Virus record (IMG/VR): IMGVR_UViG_3300042882_000899
Location: 32,001-96,000 of that record
Direction: 5' to 3' (one strand)
Length of the DNA: 64,000 nt
DNA from: a virus
Part shown: in pieces, positions 53,430-62,172 of the stretch
How the letters are laid out: every line of letters starts with the position of its first letter
How positions within the stretch are numbered: the stretch's first letter is position 1
Notes under the pieces: generated by a model
The model's input: the letters and a program-made list of their open reading frames with translations, nothing else
Database searches by the model: none
What the model was told of the DNA's origin: nothing
Made by a program: the position numbers and the translations under genes

Positions 53430-53767
53430 ATTTAGCCGCTTTAGAGGGACAAGTTTTTCTTTTAGGACATTGGAAGAATTACGAAGATTTAGAAGAAAAT
53501 TTATCAATGCCAGAATTGATTCAGACCCTAACAGCGATGAATCAAAAAGAACATAACCAGAGAAAGTTTGCAGCATCACTAAAAGGAATCCAATTAGATG
53601 ATGATGCAGAAGAAGAAAAAGAAAAAGGTTCTACCTTTGAAGATATCCAAAGAAGAGCTCTTGGGATTAAAGCATCAGCAGATGATGTTGTTAGTTTACA
53701 AGGACCCTTCGCAGCACAAGCTGGATTTGGAATTGGCGCAGGGTTAGGATACTCTAGGAGTAATTAG
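53387..53767 (+). CDS. tail assembly chaperone -1 frameshift extension (GT-like)
   Basis: C CCA AAC at 53387-53393; the -1 frame is open from there to 53767. Confidence 0.8.
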   Translation, partial: PKPNSGSGTGWSELDLAALEGQVFLLGHWKNYEDLEENLSMPELIQTLTAMNQKEHNQRKFAASLKGIQLDDDAEEEKEKGSTFEDIQRRALGIKASADDVVSLQGPFAAQAGFGIGAGLGYSRSN

Positions 53768-56700
53768 TGGCTGACGAACAAATTGTAACCTCCATAGTCG
53801 CCAAAGCCGACTTGTCTAGCCTTGTGTCTGAAGTACACAGGGCTAGTGCTAGTCTTCAGCAACTCCAAAGAGAATTACTTGCTTCCAACAAGGCAATTTC
53901 TTCTTCAACAAAATTAGCAAACAATTTATTTAGAGACACACTAACTGGAAGCGGACAATTCTCCAGCCACTTTGTAAACCTTAATTCAGATGTTGATAAG
54001 TTCGGTAAGAATTTAGATGCAGGCAGATTAAAGCTTAAAAACTATTTCCAAACTTTTAGAGAGCATGCTACTACTCAAAAGGGAATGATCAGAGAACTTG
54101 CCAAAGAGCAAGTTATGCTTCAAAACTCAGTCCTGCAACCTTTAGGCAGAAATGCTCAAGGTTTAATGCAGTACAACGTCATGATCCCAAGAGGATTAGA
54201 TGCTGTAAAGAATAGCGCACAGCTAGCTCGTATGGAACTGCAAATAATGAATCGTGCACTATCTGAAGGAGCAGGATCTTTAATTAACTGGGGTAAGAAT
54301 ACTCAGTGGGCAGGTCGTCAGCTTACAGTTGGTCTTACAGTACCATTAACAATGTTTGGTGCCGCAGCTTCAAAAGCTTTTAGAGAAGCAGACCAAGAGC
54401 TCGTAAGACTTACAAAGGTTTATGGTGGACTAGCAGCAACATCTGCAACAGATTTAAAAGCAATTAGAGAAGAAGTTATTCAGACAGCAAAGTCTTTATC
54501 TCAAACAATGGGTGCTTCTTTTAAAGATACAATTGCTTTAGGTGCAGATATTGCAGCAACTGGAAAGATGGGTAACGAGCTGCTTGGCTCAATAGAAGAA
54601 ACAACAAGACTATCTATTCTTGGTGAAGTAGACAGACAAGATGCAATGAAGGCTACACTTTCAATTCAAACAGCATTTAAGCAGAACACAGAACAACTTA
54701 CAGAATCAATTAACTTCCTTAACGCAGTTGAAAACCAGACATCTACAACTCTTAACGATTTAGTAGAAGCTATTCCAAAAGCTGGTCCAGTTATACAGCA
54801 ACTAGGCGGAAGCATTGAAGACCTAGCTCTCTATATGACAGCAATGAGAGAGGGTGGTATTAATGCATCTGAAGGAGCAAACGCATTAAAGTCAGGACTT
54901 GCTTCTTTAATTAACCCAACAAAGCAAACAGTTGGAATCATGTCAGACTTCGGTATAGATGTAATGGGAATGGTTGCCAAAAATACTGGAAACACAACTG
55001 GCATGTTGATGGATCTACAAACTGCTCTTAATAAGCTAGACCCATTGAGTAAAGCAAGAGCGCTAGAGCAAATGTTTGGAAAGTTCCAGTTTGCAAGAAT
55101 GAGCGCACTGCTCAATAACCTTGGAAAAGAAGGAAGCCAGACGCTTCAGGTTATGGATTTAATGAAAGCAAGTACTTCAGATTTGGCTGGTATTGCAGAG
55201 CGAGAATTAGGAATGATTACAGAATCTGCATCTGGTAAATACAGAAAGGCTATGGAAAGCCTAAAGGCAGAGCTAGCAAGCGTAGGAGAAGAGTTCCTCG
55301 GTATAGGAACTAAGATTCTAAATGCAGCATCAAAGATTCTGAATTTCTTTACTGAGTTGCCAACACCAATTAAAAAAGCTCTTACATTTATGGCAGGATT
55401 CACAGCATTAGTTGGTCCACTTATTATGTTAACTGGTGTGCTTGCAAACTTCTTCGGCTATATAACAAAGGGAATAGTCCAGCTTAGATCTTTCTTTATG
55501 AGAGCAAACGGATGGAAAATGCTCACCCCAGAAATTATTGCTGCTCAAAAAGCAGCAGAGATGGTTGAGAATGCGTTCTATTCAGATGCAGCAGCAGCTC
55601 AAGTTTTACACAACGCATTACAAAAGCTTGTTTTAGATTATCAAAACCTGCAAGCAGCTTCAATGAAAAATGCAGTTCCTGTAAACCCAGGAGTTAGCAC
55701 AGTTGATGGAAATGCAGTTGTTGCAGCTGGAAGAAGATTCGTAGACCCTAACGATCCGTATGTAGGAGATCCTAATACTAGAGCAATGTCTCACATTAGA
55801 CCAAGAGATATAAATAACCCAGCAACTATATTTGGCGGGGTACCAGGAGCTATTCCAGTTAATAGAGGAATATCAAGAACTCCACAAATGTACATGCATG
55901 ATAGACTTCCAAATATTGAAGGTCTAACAAGCGTTAAGGGGATATCCACAGGAATTGTTCCAGGAGAAGCAGCTAAGTTCCACGCATTAATGGCAACACT
56001 TGGAATGCAAACTGAGCAAGAAGTTGCTACATTAAAGAAGACTATTGCTATGGGCGGAACAGTAAGTAGAGAGCTATTAGATACATTTGATGACATACTT
56101 CCTATAACTCAAAGATTTGCAAATAGCGCAGCAGAGCAATCTGCATTAATTGTGCAACAAATGAGAAATGCTGAAATTACTGTAGACCAAGCAAAGGCAA
56201 GAATACTTGCACTAAATGCACAGATAGAAGCAGAAATGGGATCTGCTGTAAGTGCATATGCAGTAGGCAGAGGACGTACATTAGATTTAACAAAAGCTCC
56301 AATGATGAATCAACCAGTTGTTGATGCAAATGGACAATTTACATTAAGAGATTTATATAAGAAAGAATCCAACAGGGCAGTCATGGAAGAGTTTGGAAGA
56401 GTTCGTGGAGTAAGAACATTTGGAGCTCCTTACAGCATTCAGACAACAAGAATGCCTAAGTTCAATGATGGTGGAGGAGTTGAGTCCTTTGGTCCAGGAA
56501 AGACAATGGTATCTGGACCATCTTCAATTAACTATGACGACAGGCTTGGTAGCGTTCCAATCGGAGGTTATGTACTAAATCAGTCTGCTTCAATGGACCC
56601 AGCGAATGCCCCACTCGTTGAAATGGCTGCAGCTACATATGAAGACGGCGGAAAGATAACAGCAGCACTTACTCCACGGGAAGTAGTGTTTGGTCCTAAG

Positions 56701-59700
56701 ATTCAAAGAATGCCTGAGCTGTATGCAGCAGTAGATGCAGCAAATAGCGGATATAGTTTTGGCGGTCAGATTATGAGAGGCACATATGGATATGGAAGAG
56801 ACAGCGTTCTATCAATATGGGCAAAGCTAGTTAACTCTAAAGATTATCCAGTTGTAATTAAATCAGCAACAGTTGCTTCTGATGCTGCTATATTATCACA
56901 GCTTACTGGCATGGATATTAAAGATGCCACAAAGAGAGTTTCTTCAGATTATGATGAAGCAACAGAGTACGCTAAAAAGGCAGCAAATAAAAATGGAACA
57001 AGAAAAACAGAAGAGTTTGTAAAAGCAAGAACAGCCCAGCTTATTAGATTAAGCAAAGAGTACCCAGGTGCAAATTTAATTTTAGATCAATATTCAAGCA
57101 AAAATAAGTACAATCAAAGTGCAAAAGCAGCTGGTATGAAAGCTATAGCTCCTGAAACATATGCAGGAACAATGAGAGCTGTAGTTAAGGATTTAATAGA
57201 TGATGGAGTTTTAACTCCAGCACAAGCAAAGAAAGTTTTTGGAATTTTAGGAGGAGTAACAGATACGTACGATCCAATTTCTAAATCTCACACCATGACT
57301 GCACAAAGAAGTGCTTCAATATTCAAGCCAGGCGAATTACAAGCCCTACTTGTTAAAGAAGGAATGTCAAAAGCAGAAGCAGCAAAATTTGCCGATGTCA
57401 CTGGAGTTAGATCAAATAATTTTGTTGGTCAGTCGACTGGGCTTGCAAAATCATTTAACACTATGGGAAGATGGCTAGAGGTATCAACTGATGGAACTTT
57501 TAGAGATGAAGTTTCACCATTTCAAGACGAAGCAAAGGGCAACTTTATATCAGGAATTAAAAAACTTAAAACTAAGTTGGGAATTACAGGCCCCACAACA
57601 ATGAAGGAAATTATTAAACAGCTAACATTGATGAGAATGAAATCTGCATCGGGCTTTAATTCTAAAATGGTTACAACATTGCGTGGAAAGCTGTCACACA
57701 TATCGTTTGCAAAACCAGCACTAGGCCCACTTGCTGGAGAATTTAATATGGGCGGAATGATTCCAGGTGGATCTATATCTAGAAATAGAAAAAACTACGG
57801 AAATCCTGCTCAGTTAATAAAGCTTTTAGCTGCAGATAAGCAGCTAAAGATTTTAGCAAAAGCTAGAGAATTAAGCTCAAGAGCCCACCTAGGCAAGTTT
57901 GCTGATACACCAGTAACTGAATATGGACATCAAATTTCACCTAGCTCTGGTATGAGTTATCCTATACCTGGCGTATCTGGATTGTATAAAGTTGATAAGA
58001 AAAAAGTTTTCGTTAAAGGCGTAGATCATGAAGTAGTTGCAACACATGAGCCAATCGGAACCAGAATTGCAAGAGATCTTTTCGGAATAGAGGCTCCAGT
58101 TCAAACAGCTAGAACAGTTGTCAACCCGTTAGATCCAAAAAGAAAAAGCAAGCTGCTTGCACTAGAATCAGACTATGATCCACGATTTGCAAACACTAAT
58201 GTGCCATGGGATGAAGACACGATAATTAGACAGCTTGCTAATTCTCTTCTACTCAACAATAAAGACTTATCTAGAGGTAACGTATACGGTAATTTTAACC
58301 CAGATGTTGGAAATGCTGGAGTGTTTAAAAAAGCATCTGGAAACACAGCACTTGCAGAAGCCCATGAAATGAACTCTATGGAAAAGCAAGCAATGATTAA
58401 TTTACTTGCTGTTAAAGGTGGAGCAAGAAAAGACTTTGCACGTGATACAGCCCCAATAATTGCTAAAATGAGCCCAAAAAAATATGGTCGAAAAATGAAA
58501 AAGGTGTTAGAGGATGCTCGTCCAAAATTATTACAACTAATAAATGATCTACCTGTAGATCTTAGACCACCTTACCAAGCAATGCTCAAAAGATTGGATG
58601 ATGGAATAGATGTTGATTGGAGTAAGTATCATGCTGTACATTCTAATCCAAAATATCTTAATGCTGGAGGGCCAGTTGGTGGAGGACCAATAAAATCAGG
58701 AAGACGTGCCTATGGTCGAAAAGACGGGTCACGTAGACCAGGAAACCCTGCCGCCAGAGCTTCCTGGGAGGCAGAACAACGTGCACAAAGAGAAAGAGAT
58801 GCAGCAGCAGAAAGATCTAGAGCTTCATCTCGTCAAATTACTGGCCAGCAGGCCTTAACAAGCGGGCTAGGAAGAGAAGCGGTAAGAACAGGAACAACAA
58901 GCTTCTATAATCCTGGGCAAGTAATGGTTAACAATATGCTTGACCCATTTAAAAATTCAGCAGCAATGAAAGCTCAGTACTTATCAGCAGCTTTTAGATC
59001 TATGGGAAATTCAATTAAAGTAGACTCTATGCAGCTAGCAAAAGCCATAGATATAAATGCAAGGGTTATTACTCAGTCTATAAAGAATACTGCTGCATCT
59101 ATGAGCAGTGCTGTAAGATCAGCTGCTACATCAACATTAAATTTTGCCAAGAGAGCACAAAACGCAATCATAAGAGAGCAAAATGCATTTGCAGCAGCTA
59201 GATATCCTGTTGGACAAGCACCAGCACAAGGATTCTTTGGCCCAGGTTTTGTTGGAAATTATAAGGACATGGGCGATGGTATTCAGTCTAGAAAAGTAGG
59301 AACTCTCGGAATGAGAAGAACAGAGTACCTTGTTGATGGAACCAGCATGACTGCAAAGCAAGCAGCAGCAGCAGGAGTAGTAATACCAAGACGAGCAAAC
59401 GGTATGAGCATGGGCTCTCAAATGGGAATTGGTATGGCTGGCTCTATGGGCGGAATGGCATTGATGAACCAGGAAAAAGTTTTGGGAATGAGTGGAATGC
59501 AGGCTGGAATGGGATTAATGGCTGCAACTTCAATCCTTCCAATGCTTCCATGGGCCAAGGTAGGTACTGGAATAAAATCTGCTGGAACTGCCTTAAAGGG
59601 ATTTTCATTGACAATGGGAGGGTTAGCAAAATTTGGAGCAATGCTTGCAAGATTTGCTAAGGGCTTTGGATTAATAGGAGCAGCAATTACCGTTGCAAGT

Positions 59701-62172
59701 GCTGCATTCAAGATATACAAGGATTATAAGGATGCTCAGCAAGACGCCTCTATGGGTCTTTCTATGACAGCAAAAGCTGCAGAGCAAGCTGGAGTAAAAT
59801 ATTTTAATCTTCAGGAAACAATGCAAGGCTACATAGATAAGCAAAAGCTTGTCGCAGCAGCAGCAAAGGGATCAGAAAATAGCTCTATCGGAATGCCTGG
59901 TCTTCCTCAGTCTATAGAAGATATGAAGAAGGCAAAAGAAGAAGGCAAGGGCTTAAAGGATCTTATTGAATCTATAAATAGATCAACCAGCACACAAGAA
60001 ACACAAAGGCTTGTATCAAATCAAAAAGCTCAGTATATAGCAGCTGGAATGAGCATAGAGGAAGCAAATAAAAAGATATACGGTGCCTTAGCTAATAGCG
60101 ATAAGGCGTCCCAAGCATATACAATGCTTGCAAATACAGAATTTGGATCAATTATAGATAAAGCTTCTGCAGCAGAATTTTCTGTTGGTAACCTTGTAAA
60201 TACTTTAAATAAAGGCCCAGGAACAGCTGATTGGTACAAAGAAGTAGGCAATGGCTTTGAAGGTCTTATAAATGTTTTCTCTAACGCTACCACTTCATTG
60301 GTCGGAACTAAGGACGAGCTTGGAAATGTTATAGATGAGTATGAGGCTTATCAGATAGTTATGTCAAAGGCAGAAGCAAATAATCCTGGAATGAATAAGG
60401 AAATTGGCGCAGATGCATACAGCAATCTTGAAAGAACACAGCCCCTACTGGCATCGATCACAAATCAAACAGATAGTATAAAAGGTATTTTAGCAAAATG
60501 GAAACTTTTTACCTCTGGTATCAATGTAGATTTAAGTAAAATTGATTCAACACTAGCAATAAAGCTAGCTGGATTTACTTCAGCAATTGGAACAGGAATT
60601 GCCGAATTAACTAAAGCTGCTGACAATTCAACAACATATGGAAAAACTGGGGCAGCATTATCTAAATTACAAAAAACAATTGCCGCAACTTCTGCAGCCG
60701 CCCAAAGAGCAAATGCAGCTTCTCAAAGAAGCGCACAGGAAGAGCTAAAGGCAATTGCAAAAAAGATCAAGCTTATAGAGGAAGAAAAAAATAAAAAGCT
60801 AGAAGCATTAAGAGCAACCCAAGATGCTTCCAACTATGCATTAGAGCTACAGAAGCTACAAATTGAATATGCTGATGCAGTATCTCGTGGAGATACAGCT
60901 GCGGCAGCATCGGCAAGACTAAGCATTGATCAGCTTACTTCAAATAGACAGAGCGATCTTGCGGCTAAGGCAATTGAAGATGCTGCCAATAAGGCAAAAG
61001 CACCTTTAGAAAAAGACGCAGAAAGAATTCAAGATCGTCAAGATAAAAAGAATATTTCTTTCCAAAATGCTACAGATAATTCTGCAGTAGCTGGAGAAAT
61101 AATGACAACCATTACTGGGTTTCAAACAAAGTATAATGATTTAACAACTAGAGCAATTAACGCAAAGCTTCTTCCTGATAAAGAAAGAGCAGCAGAAGAA
61201 GCAAAGATTGTTACAGAACTTGTAGCTCTTATTAAAGAAATACAGAAAGCTGGATCTGGGAATACTACATCTGCAAAAACAATAAGAGACGCATTTGGCA
61301 CCTATTTTGACAAAGACGGTAAGCCTATGTCCCCAGGAACCACTACATCAGGATCGCCAATAGGATTTGATAAAAATGGTAAGCCTATATTGTCAAGTAC
61401 TACGACGCCAAGTAAGGGAGTCACAGACGCATTTCAAAAAGACTTAGCTGCAGTAGAAAAGCTGGCAACATCAATTACTGGAGGAGTAACATTAAAAAAT
61501 CTTCGTGACGATGTTGTAAGAGCTTTGGGTGGATACAAGTCAACAGCACCAAAGGGTACAGTAGAATTTGGAAAAGATACAGTTCAGCAAGGAAAAGGCA
61601 AAAATGCAATAGAGGCTGCTAAAAATGCAAGATCTTCTGGGTCTTCAAAGATGGTAAGTATTAATGATGTTGTATGGTATAGATTCAGCTGGAATGGTAA
61701 AGACTACATAAGTAATGATTCTGGAACAGAAGTTTACTCTTGGGATGATCAGAAAAAAACTAAGGGTGCTAGGGTTAAAATGGCTGACGGAGGAATGGTT
61801 AAACATTTTGGTCCTGGTGGAGGAGTTTACGGTCCAGGAACTGGAACTTCTGACTCTATACCAGCTATGCTATCAAATGGAGAATATGTAATTAGAGCTG
61901 CATCAGTTCAGGCAGTAGGAGTTCCTATGCTAGATAAGATAAATAAGCTAGCAGGAGGAGGCATGGTTAGTTATGACATACCTAAGTATTCAGGTGGAGG
62001 CAGAGTGAGATTTGCAGATGGAGGCCTTGCTTCCTCTTCAAGTTCATTGTATAATATTAATGTACAGCTAAACGGAACCAACTTGACAGCAGATGACGTT
62101 GCAGCTTCAATTCATAAAGAAATGAGACTTAGAGAAATGGCTTCTGGCGTAAATAGAAGGGTTGGTGGATAA
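53767..62172 (+). CDS. tape measure protein (2801 aa) with internal cargo domains
   Basis: TP901-type TMP core at ~aa 170-560; C-terminal GPGTGTSDSIPAMLSNGEYV; kinase-like insert. Confidence 0.92.
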   Translation: MADEQIVTSIVAKADLSSLVSEVHRASASLQQLQRELLASNKAISSSTKLANNLFRDTLTGSGQFSSHFVNLNSDVDKFGKNLDAGRLKLKNYFQTFREHATTQKGMIRELAKEQVMLQNSVLQPLGRNAQGLMQYNVMIPRGLDAVKNSAQLARMELQIMNRALSEGAGSLINWGKNTQWAGRQLTVGLTVPLTMFGAAASKAFREADQELVRLTKVYGGLAATSATDLKAIREEVIQTAKSLSQTMGASFKDTIALGADIAATGKMGNELLGSIEETTRLSILGEVDRQDAMKATLSIQTAFKQNTEQLTESINFLNAVENQTSTTLNDLVEAIPKAGPVIQQLGGSIEDLALYMTAMREGGINASEGANALKSGLASLINPTKQTVGIMSDFGIDVMGMVAKNTGNTTGMLMDLQTALNKLDPLSKARALEQMFGKFQFARMSALLNNLGKEGSQTLQVMDLMKASTSDLAGIAERELGMITESASGKYRKAMESLKAELASVGEEFLGIGTKILNAASKILNFFTELPTPIKKALTFMAGFTALVGPLIMLTGVLANFFGYITKGIVQLRSFFMRANGWKMLTPEIIAAQKAAEMVENAFYSDAAAAQVLHNALQKLVLDYQNLQAASMKNAVPVNPGVSTVDGNAVVAAGRRFVDPNDPYVGDPNTRAMSHIRPRDINNPATIFGGVPGAIPVNRGISRTPQMYMHDRLPNIEGLTSVKGISTGIVPGEAAKFHALMATLGMQTEQEVATLKKTIAMGGTVSRELLDTFDDILPITQRFANSAAEQSALIVQQMRNAEITVDQAKARILALNAQIEAEMGSAVSAYAVGRGRTLDLTKAPMMNQPVVDANGQFTLRDLYKKESNRAVMEEFGRVRGVRTFGAPYSIQTTRMPKFNDGGGVESFGPGKTMVSGPSSINYDDRLGSVPIGGYVLNQSASMDPANAPLVEMAAATYEDGGKITAALTPREVVFGPKIQRMPELYAAVDAANSGYSFGGQIMRGTYGYGRDSVLSIWAKLVNSKDYPVVIKSATVASDAAILSQLTGMDIKDATKRVSSDYDEATEYAKKAANKNGTRKTEEFVKARTAQLIRLSKEYPGANLILDQYSSKNKYNQSAKAAGMKAIAPETYAGTMRAVVKDLIDDGVLTPAQAKKVFGILGGVTDTYDPISKSHTMTAQRSASIFKPGELQALLVKEGMSKAEAAKFADVTGVRSNNFVGQSTGLAKSFNTMGRWLEVSTDGTFRDEVSPFQDEAKGNFISGIKKLKTKLGITGPTTMKEIIKQLTLMRMKSASGFNSKMVTTLRGKLSHISFAKPALGPLAGEFNMGGMIPGGSISRNRKNYGNPAQLIKLLAADKQLKILAKARELSSRAHLGKFADTPVTEYGHQISPSSGMSYPIPGVSGLYKVDKKKVFVKGVDHEVVATHEPIGTRIARDLFGIEAPVQTARTVVNPLDPKRKSKLLALESDYDPRFANTNVPWDEDTIIRQLANSLLLNNKDLSRGNVYGNFNPDVGNAGVFKKASGNTALAEAHEMNSMEKQAMINLLAVKGGARKDFARDTAPIIAKMSPKKYGRKMKKVLEDARPKLLQLINDLPVDLRPPYQAMLKRLDDGIDVDWSKYHAVHSNPKYLNAGGPVGGGPIKSGRRAYGRKDGSRRPGNPAARASWEAEQRAQRERDAAAERSRASSRQITGQQALTSGLGREAVRTGTTSFYNPGQVMVNNMLDPFKNSAAMKAQYLSAAFRSMGNSIKVDSMQLAKAIDINARVITQSIKNTAASMSSAVRSAATSTLNFAKRAQNAIIREQNAFAAARYPVGQAPAQGFFGPGFVGNYKDMGDGIQSRKVGTLGMRRTEYLVDGTSMTAKQAAAAGVVIPRRANGMSMGSQMGIGMAGSMGGMALMNQEKVLGMSGMQAGMGLMAATSILPMLPWAKVGTGIKSAGTALKGFSLTMGGLAKFGAMLARFAKGFGLIGAAITVASAAFKIYKDYKDAQQDASMGLSMTAKAAEQAGVKYFNLQETMQGYIDKQKLVAAAAKGSENSSIGMPGLPQSIEDMKKAKEEGKGLKDLIESINRSTSTQETQRLVSNQKAQYIAAGMSIEEANKKIYGALANSDKASQAYTMLANTEFGSIIDKASAAEFSVGNLVNTLNKGPGTADWYKEVGNGFEGLINVFSNATTSLVGTKDELGNVIDEYEAYQIVMSKAEANNPGMNKEIGADAYSNLERTQPLLASITNQTDSIKGILAKWKLFTSGINVDLSKIDSTLAIKLAGFTSAIGTGIAELTKAADNSTTYGKTGAALSKLQKTIAATSAAAQRANAASQRSAQEELKAIAKKIKLIEEEKNKKLEALRATQDASNYALELQKLQIEYADAVSRGDTAAAASARLSIDQLTSNRQSDLAAKAIEDAANKAKAPLEKDAERIQDRQDKKNISFQNATDNSAVAGEIMTTITGFQTKYNDLTTRAINAKLLPDKERAAEEAKIVTELVALIKEIQKAGSGNTTSAKTIRDAFGTYFDKDGKPMSPGTTTSGSPIGFDKNGKPILSSTTTPSKGVTDAFQKDLAAVEKLATSITGGVTLKNLRDDVVRALGGYKSTAPKGTVEFGKDTVQQGKGKNAIEAAKNARSSGSSKMVSINDVVWYRFSWNGKDYISNDSGTEVYSWDDQKKTKGARVKMADGGMVKHFGPGGGVYGPGTGTSDSIPAMLSNGEYVIRAASVQAVGVPMLDKINKLAGGGMVSYDIPKYSGGGRVRFADGGLASSSSSLYNINVQLNGTNLTADDVAASIHKEMRLREMASGVNRRVGG

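Follow-up and report, generated by a model that had tools for sequence, protein, structure and literature searches.

What is a domain with the motifs of a kinase doing in the middle of a phage tape measure protein? The question is raised by a 64,000-nucleotide stretch of DNA (the window) from an uncultured phage of lake type, bases 32001-96000 of the 114,960-bp IMG/VR virus record IMGVR_UViG_3300042882_000899, which is estimated to be 96% complete. A single uninterrupted open reading frame (ORF; 53767..62172, protein P0001) encodes a tape measure protein (TMP) of 2801 amino acids (aa) that is recognized by Pfam PF10145 and by TMP PHROGs; coordinates are those of the window, and all features described for this ORF lie on the + strand. 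TMPs are regarded as length rulers carrying at most wall-degrading domains, and most of our full-text literature searches turned up no account of a kinase carried by one, an absence that is no proof of novelty. The explanation we favour, and consider reasonably probable, is that this giant siphophage TMP holds in its middle an optional, exchangeable cassette of kinase fold that acts on a host target at entry.

Catalytic residues and fold of the kinase-like domain

The kinase-like domain proper occupies aa ~1355-1629 (57829..58653), as delimited by the extent of homology, an AlphaFold model and fold searches, and consists of N-terminal helices, a beta-rich N-lobe and a helical C-lobe. It is carried by an optional module of 285 residues within the 2801-residue TMP. 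Conservation was assessed in an alignment of 130 domain sequences, many of them just 27-45% identical to the query, with identities reaching down to ~27%. The Gly-rich loop GVSGLYK starts at aa 1402 (57970..57990) and has G1405 in 130/130 and Y1407 in 126/130 sequences. It is followed by VFVK (58006..58017), the second strand of the N-lobe hairpin, which was taken as kinase beta-3 and whose Lys1417 (58015) is found in 130/130, and by the helix-C Glu1428 of an 'HE' pair (58048..58050), again 130/130. The catalytic loop NNKDLSRGN (58255..58281) has Asp1500 (58264) in 129/130, Leu1501, and Asn1505 (58279) in 130/130, and the DVG that we take as the DFG equivalent (58303..58311) has the metal-binding Asp1513 in 130/130 and Gly1515 in 126/130. 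The kinase catalytic set (Gly-loop Gly, beta-3 Lys, helix-C Glu, D-x4-N and DxG Asp) is thus present in 129-130 of the 130 sequences, well above anything chance would give. Further near-invariant blocks of the alignment are LES, D(V/L)GxAGVFxxASG and QAxINLLxVKGGA. A sequence-only reading of this DNA had picked out GVSGLYK, VFVK, HE, NKDLSRGN, DVG, FNMGG and LNAGG, all of which lie where it placed them in the TMP ORF, and had pointed to conservation of the K/D/N/D residues in homologues as a check, which the counts for K, E, N and the two D residues bear out.

These counts bear directly on whether the module is catalytic at all. The kinase activity of the domain is a prediction, pseudokinases are common in the superfamily, and the domain is placed between two hydrophobic, membrane-type TMP segments detected in a Kyte-Doolittle scan (aa 537-571, 55375..55479, and aa 1958-1984, 59638..59718, the second ending a Gly/Met-rich tract), a position that would suit a gate. 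A non-catalytic module of kinase fold might accordingly bind nucleotide or play a structural part, serving as plug or spacer, or sensing ATP at the cytoplasm and thereby switching the conformation of the TMP. Pseudokinases have usually lost one or more of the key residues, whereas here all of them are essentially invariant: the catalytic Asp, the Asn and Asp that bind metal, and the Lys-Glu pair. Because these residues are invariant, we consider a spacer or pseudokinase very unlikely and, judging from the sequence and the model, take the domain to be very probably an active kinase-fold enzyme.

The domain was modelled with AlphaFold2 from a 38-sequence alignment (pLDDT 87.1, pTM 0.86). In the model VFVK lies in strand 87-94, the Glu in the next long helix (97-114) and D-x4-N after helix 158-170; DVG follows two short strands, and the C-lobe helices span 213-307. 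The order of the conserved residues along the model is the canonical kinase arrangement, and the model has the bilobal kinase fold, with a beta-rich N-lobe including helix C and a helical C-lobe.

Fold searches with this model gave kinase-like structures throughout the best matches listed. Foldseek against the PDB placed CtkA first (E 2e-3, probability 1.0), followed by PI3K/Vps34 and ordinary protein kinases, and all 46 of the matches listed to rank 50 were kinase-fold proteins. Two VIA searches gave kinase-like structures in 50/50 of the best rows in both runs. The first, independent of Foldseek and covering 48,161 chains, ranked CotH at Z 11.5 (root-mean-square deviation (rmsd) 3.9, 214 residues), MavQ at 9.9, CtkA at 9.6 and PI4KIIalpha at 9.2, with Fam20C and ATM at Z 8.6 and HipA and actin-fragmin kinase at Z 8.2; the second gave CotH at Z 11.5, CtkA at 10.6, PI4KIIalpha at 9.3, and HipT and LepB at 8.8. 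Over both searches CotH superposed with rmsd 3.7-3.9 over 213-214 residues. As an internal control, the neighbouring TMP module (aa 1001-1325) was searched likewise and its best match reached just Z 3.6, so the kinase-fold result is not generic. The predicted structure was kinase-like in all three fold searches, and the proposal in the sequence-only reading of an atypical kinase fold of HipA/CtkA/PI3-4K type is upheld, with CotH as best match and CtkA, PI4KIIalpha, PI3K and HipA/HipT near the top. By its model the domain is structurally nearest to the CotH/CtkA/PI4K-II/HipA group.

A search of viral models gave as best match a phage protein annotated with a PI3/4-kinase domain (E 3e-5). It also found kinase-fold look-alikes in large virion proteins with portal, MuF and ART annotations, including one of Mycobacterium phage Onyinye, and in a large uncharacterised protein of Gordonia phage GodonK.

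The neighbours also raise the question of substrate. A kinase-fold enzyme with other chemistry or a non-protein substrate, either a lipid or envelope-precursor kinase or an AMPylase-type transferase, might modify the envelope locally and so aid formation of the TMP channel. The lipid kinases MavQ (Z 9.9), PI4KIIalpha (9.2-9.3), LepB (8.8) and the PI3Ks score no more than 1-3 Z units below the top protein kinases, PI3_PI4_kinase and LepB_N are among the look-alikes in the closest Atlas clusters that have a name, the domain would emerge beside the membrane, and the probably actinobacterial host could offer, for example, the phosphatidylinositol-type lipids of its membrane. The two best matches, CotH and CtkA, are protein kinases, however, and the PI3_PI4_kinase profile has no match, and we regard such an activity as somewhat unlikely.

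At the level of sequence the domain stands apart from the families it resembles. The 310-aa domain segment is matched by nothing in Pfam, the PHROGs or, by sequence, the PDB; the PDB search, with the single sequence and with a 38-sequence profile, gave as sole match a chance coiled-coil (E 0.94), and tblastn of the domain against 50,697 deposited phage genomes gave none. At E <= 1 the CotH profile PF08757 matched neither the TMP nor the domain, and a search of the entire phage genome at E <= 10 found no match to it; the PI3_PI4_kinase profile PF00454 and the HipA_C profile PF07804 matched neither the TMP or domain nor, at E <= 10, the phage genome. Because these three profiles match nothing in the phage genome, the domain represents a sequence family of its own, new to the kinase-like superfamily and without a Pfam model.

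CotH, an atypical protein kinase of the Bacillus spore coat (PDB 5jd9/5jda), shares the bilobal kinase-like fold and, like the TMP, is part of a large assembled particle, but it is only ~10% identical and is a free spore-coat protein, whereas our domain is embedded in a phage TMP; although the structural core is similar, the missing PF08757 match rules out membership of the CotH family. CtkA of Helicobacter pylori (PDB 3akj/3akk/3akl), the top Foldseek match (Z 9.6-10.6 in the VIA searches), and the HipA/HipT toxin kinases (Z 8.2-8.8) have the same succession of Gly-loop, Lys, Glu, D-x4-N and DxG. Unlike HipA, the TMP domain lies inside a TMP in a tail gene cluster, with no antitoxin partner (HipB/HipS) or toxin-antitoxin context, and on this ground, together with the lack of a PF07804 match, it was excluded from that family. 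The catalytic loop differs as well, being D-x-H-x-x-N in HipA and PI3K and D-L-x-x-x-N (D-L-S-R-G-N), with no His, in the TMP domain. PI4K type II alpha, the PI3Ks and the Legionella lipid kinases MavQ and LepB are alike in fold (Z 8.8-9.9 over ~205-219 residues, 181 for LepB), but the TMP domain lacks the D-R-H-x-x-N loop of PI4K/PI3K, and PI3/4K membership was rejected for want of this His and of a PF00454 match.

The family is almost confined to TMPs. Searched exhaustively with HMMER, 1.84 billion representatives yielded 158 relatives of the 310-aa segment at E <= 1e-3, 118 of which reach E <= 1e-30, and the proteins that bear the domain are nearly all 2000-4500 aa long. A second database holds 197 clusters with the domain, almost all of which also have PF10145 and many of which are named tape measure protein by JGI, and in IMG/VR more than 300 stretches encode a relative of the domain.

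Two further observations concern kinase-like segments elsewhere. The most distant relative of the domain, P0151 (652 aa; E 4e-12, 27% identity), resembles the kinase over aa 13-282 and has, beyond that part, a HAD acid-phosphatase domain (PF03767) that scores 28.7 bits, barely above the cut-off. A second, unrelated small kinase-like segment (NIDTHPGNIMFD ... MDLGNS) is found in P0141 (aa 196-367), P0031 (aa 3709-3820) and P0013 (aa 802-913), TMPs that already bear the kinase domain; it has a weak PI3_PI4_kinase match (E 0.008, below the cut-off). Kinase-type cargo of TMPs may have been acquired more than once.

An optional and exchangeable cassette

The sequence-only reading had the cassette bounded by FNMGG and LNAGG motifs. 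Each proves to start one copy of a 20-aa direct repeat, and there is a natural relative that lacks exactly the stretch between them. The 5' copy, FNMGGMIPGGSISRNRKNYG (FNMGG...; aa 1326-1345, 57742..57801), is found at the same place in P0002, P0004 and P0007; the 3' copy is LNAGGPVGGGPIKSGRRAYG (LNAGG...; aa 1631-1650, 58657..58716). Near relatives conserve the repeat at the protein level, but at the DNA level it is just 44% identical. In the kinase-less relative, P0278 (2477 aa, recorded on 7 contigs), which aligns with TMP aa 1-1345 and 1625-2799, the two repeat units abut with nothing between them.

P0278 came from a presence/absence test in which the TMP N-terminus was used as query and the new matches were then screened with the kinase profile. 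The kinase domain was found in 13 of these and was absent from 5. The other four kinase-less relatives differ from the TMP over a longer middle part, and two of them have a lysozyme domain, one together with OmpA. TMPs that match this one at 89-99% identity over their first 600 residues carry kinases of discrete identity classes, ~85-100%, 72-80% and 51-56%, which combine freely with the presence or absence of an upstream module and with different C-terminal parts. From the kinase-less relatives and the free combination of classes it follows that the module is optional and exchanged by recombination, and its catalytic residues are nevertheless kept.

This behaviour bears on where the kinase works. 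It could act in the producing cell, phosphorylating the TMP or other tail or virion proteins during morphogenesis, and then be a mere passenger in the virion: CotH is the best structural match (Z 11.5), ATP is certain to be available during assembly, and the TMP is made late, beside the putative substrates. P0278 and the four other close relatives, however, assemble without the module, so it is not needed for tail assembly. Discrete allele swaps among near-identical TMPs, a pattern typical of host-interaction effectors, likewise suit a host-facing effector better than an assembly factor working on conserved phage proteins. We therefore think a role confined to the producing cell unlikely, and prefer a kinase cassette that acts on the host at entry.

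The motif that opens the flanking repeats recurs along the protein. The TMP has 9 occurrences of the pattern [FYLMW][NADES]xGGx[VIA] where 0.34 would be expected (0/2000 shuffles reached this number), and in 120 relatives there are 407 where 38 would be expected. The sites in the TMP, between 56461 and 62025 of the window, are at aa 899, 958, 996, 1326, 1631, 2672, 2728, 2741 and 2749. The pattern marks module boundaries and resembles the C-terminal TMP module (MADGG...SDSIPAMLSNGEYV...FADGG; 61780..62076), which was delimited from the motif list and a match of phrog_23013 to aa 2684-2768. It could be a linker, a cleavage site or a docking site. Directly after the kinase and the 3' repeat there is an Arg-rich, strongly basic stretch of low complexity (GRRAYGRKDGSRRPGNPAARASWEAEQRAQRERDAAAERSRASSRQ; 58672-58900, aa ~1636-1710).

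Upstream of the cassette lies the module that served as structural control, a helical and likewise exchangeable part of the protein (aa 1001-1325, 56767..57741; model pLDDT 77, pTM 0.78) with no structural match above its best Z among the 48,161 chains. It is common to ~35 of 265 relatives. Most of it (~aa 1105-1316) is unaligned in many near relatives, and many near-identical TMPs have something else there.

Related TMPs of 3100-4600 aa (P0161, P0164, P0177, P0210, P0220, P0282, P0283 and others) carry wall-directed cargo. CHAP (PF05257), LysM (PF01476) or OmpA (PF00691) are found alongside the kinase, and the lysozyme domain (PF18013) was seen just in P0282 and P0283, which lack the kinase; P0283 has OmpA as well. 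TMPs of this lineage thus serve as a platform on which cargo of several kinds is carried.

The assignment of the carrier as a TMP rests on its PhageMin_Tail core (aa 239-438, 54481..55080; PF10145, E 6.6e-28), its C-terminal TMP module and its place between presumed chaperone and distal tail genes. The match to phrog_10030 reaches E 8e-116, and with other TMP PHROGs it spans the first 600-860 residues. Upstream of it are the genes for the major head protein and the head-tail adaptor, and downstream is one for a minor tail protein. Among deposited phages similarity is confined to the first 24% of the protein and is best, at ~31% identity, with Streptomyces phages, followed by Gordonia, Staphylococcus and other phages.

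Proposed delivery at entry and its precedents

The TMP fills the tail tube and would be the first component out of the virion at infection. Its hydrophobic segments would then insert into the cell envelope, and the kinase module, which lies between them, would gain access to host ATP where the entry channel opens into the cytoplasm. There it could phosphorylate a host target, either a protein or a membrane or envelope lipid, and so aid genome entry, takeover or counter-defence. For the step on which this scheme turns, that the domain acts in the newly infected cell, we put the chances as evenly balanced.

Several points weigh against the scheme. If the ejected TMP left the kinase segment outside the membrane, the segment would be without ATP, and a 30-kDa globular domain must either fit the tail tube or refold after exit. 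CotH, the best structural neighbour, acts in spore coat assembly, and a role in the producing cell fits that neighbour equally. As to catalysis, the arrangement of the five key residues was judged by their order along the secondary structure rather than by their clustering in three dimensions, the spacing from Asn to DxG, 8 residues, is below that of classical kinases, and neither profile nor PDB searches tie the domain at sequence level to any characterised kinase family.

An enzyme carried into the cell by a TMP has a precedent in the Thermus phage P23-45, whose TMP-fused virion RNA polymerase (gp96) transcribes the pre-early genes and is proposed by its authors to stay associated with the TMP pore (PMC10770324). 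A TMP-fused enzyme can therefore work on cytoplasmic substrates. As in our case, gp96 is a giant TMP with an enzyme that acts in the cytoplasm, ejected with or before the DNA (PMC10770324); it differs in that the polymerase is N-terminal and its activity has been shown, whereas here the cassette is internal and its activity predicted. It was the only documented case of a non-lytic enzyme fused to a TMP that our literature search found.

Other phage kinases and other TMP cargo offer partial parallels. The kinases of the 'polyvalent' injected phage and plasmid proteins form a clade whose defining trait is that the C-terminal subdomain has been lost entirely; they occur in (pro)phages of Verrucomicrobia, Chlamydia and Bacteroidetes, in an account that never mentions TMPs (Iyer et al. 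2017, PMC5512222). Membership of that clade was ruled out for the TMP domain, the model of which keeps its helical C-lobe. These kinases and the T7 protein kinase parallel it in concept, as kinases that a phage delivers or makes early in order to modify proteins of its host; to our knowledge, the T7 protein kinase is not a virion protein. The peptidoglycan hydrolases carried by TMPs (CHAP, LysM, lysozyme) are likewise enzymatic modules inserted in TMPs, relatives of this one among them, but their target is the wall, outside the membrane, and they do not depend on ATP.

Host and biological meaning

A WhiB-family gene (PF02467, E 1.3e-12, above the cut-off) is present in the phage genome upstream of the window (locus L178, G000:C1:22439-25612); WhiB is a hallmark of actinobacteria and their phages. 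The deposited phages that match the TMP N-terminus are mostly actinophages (of Streptomyces, Gordonia and others), and Staphylococcus forms the largest single group. A scan of prokaryote genomes with the DNA pattern for D-K-D-L-x3-N-x2-G-x4-D-x-G gave 70 places, 2 of them real: L119 (CAZCDW010000001.1) and L128 (CAYVOK010000043.1), kinase-TMP contigs binned to a 'Bifidobacterium' metagenome-assembled genome (MAG) and an Acidimicrobiaceae MAG. Their G+C contents (42.7% and 38.1%, respectively) are like those of the phages, so this actinobacterial binning counts as weak host evidence, and both are probably phage contigs swept into the bins. The host is likely an actinobacterium with low G+C.

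A wider picture can be drawn tentatively, in which a lineage of abundant freshwater actinophages delivers a polymorphic TMP kinase at DNA entry, the kinase meets its target at the membrane, and the alleles record an arms race. In this picture the target might, equally tentatively, be a protein of host defence or of translation, or else a lipid of the envelope.

A kinase cassette in a TMP adds to kinds already known, namely enzymes borne by TMPs, atypical kinases and effectors delivered with the virion. We regard the functional claim, that of a virion-delivered kinase, as a well-founded hypothesis. Nature has supplied the means of comparison, insofar as the presence/absence variants and discrete alleles provide one TMP combined with either of two kinase alleles or lacking the kinase altogether. 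If the hypothesis is true, a polymorphic kinase delivered at entry would open a new class of effectors borne by virions and give the TMP a new function. With a conserved and apparently active kinase in hundreds of them, TMPs would then be general carriers of protein effectors that act ahead of the expression of any phage gene.

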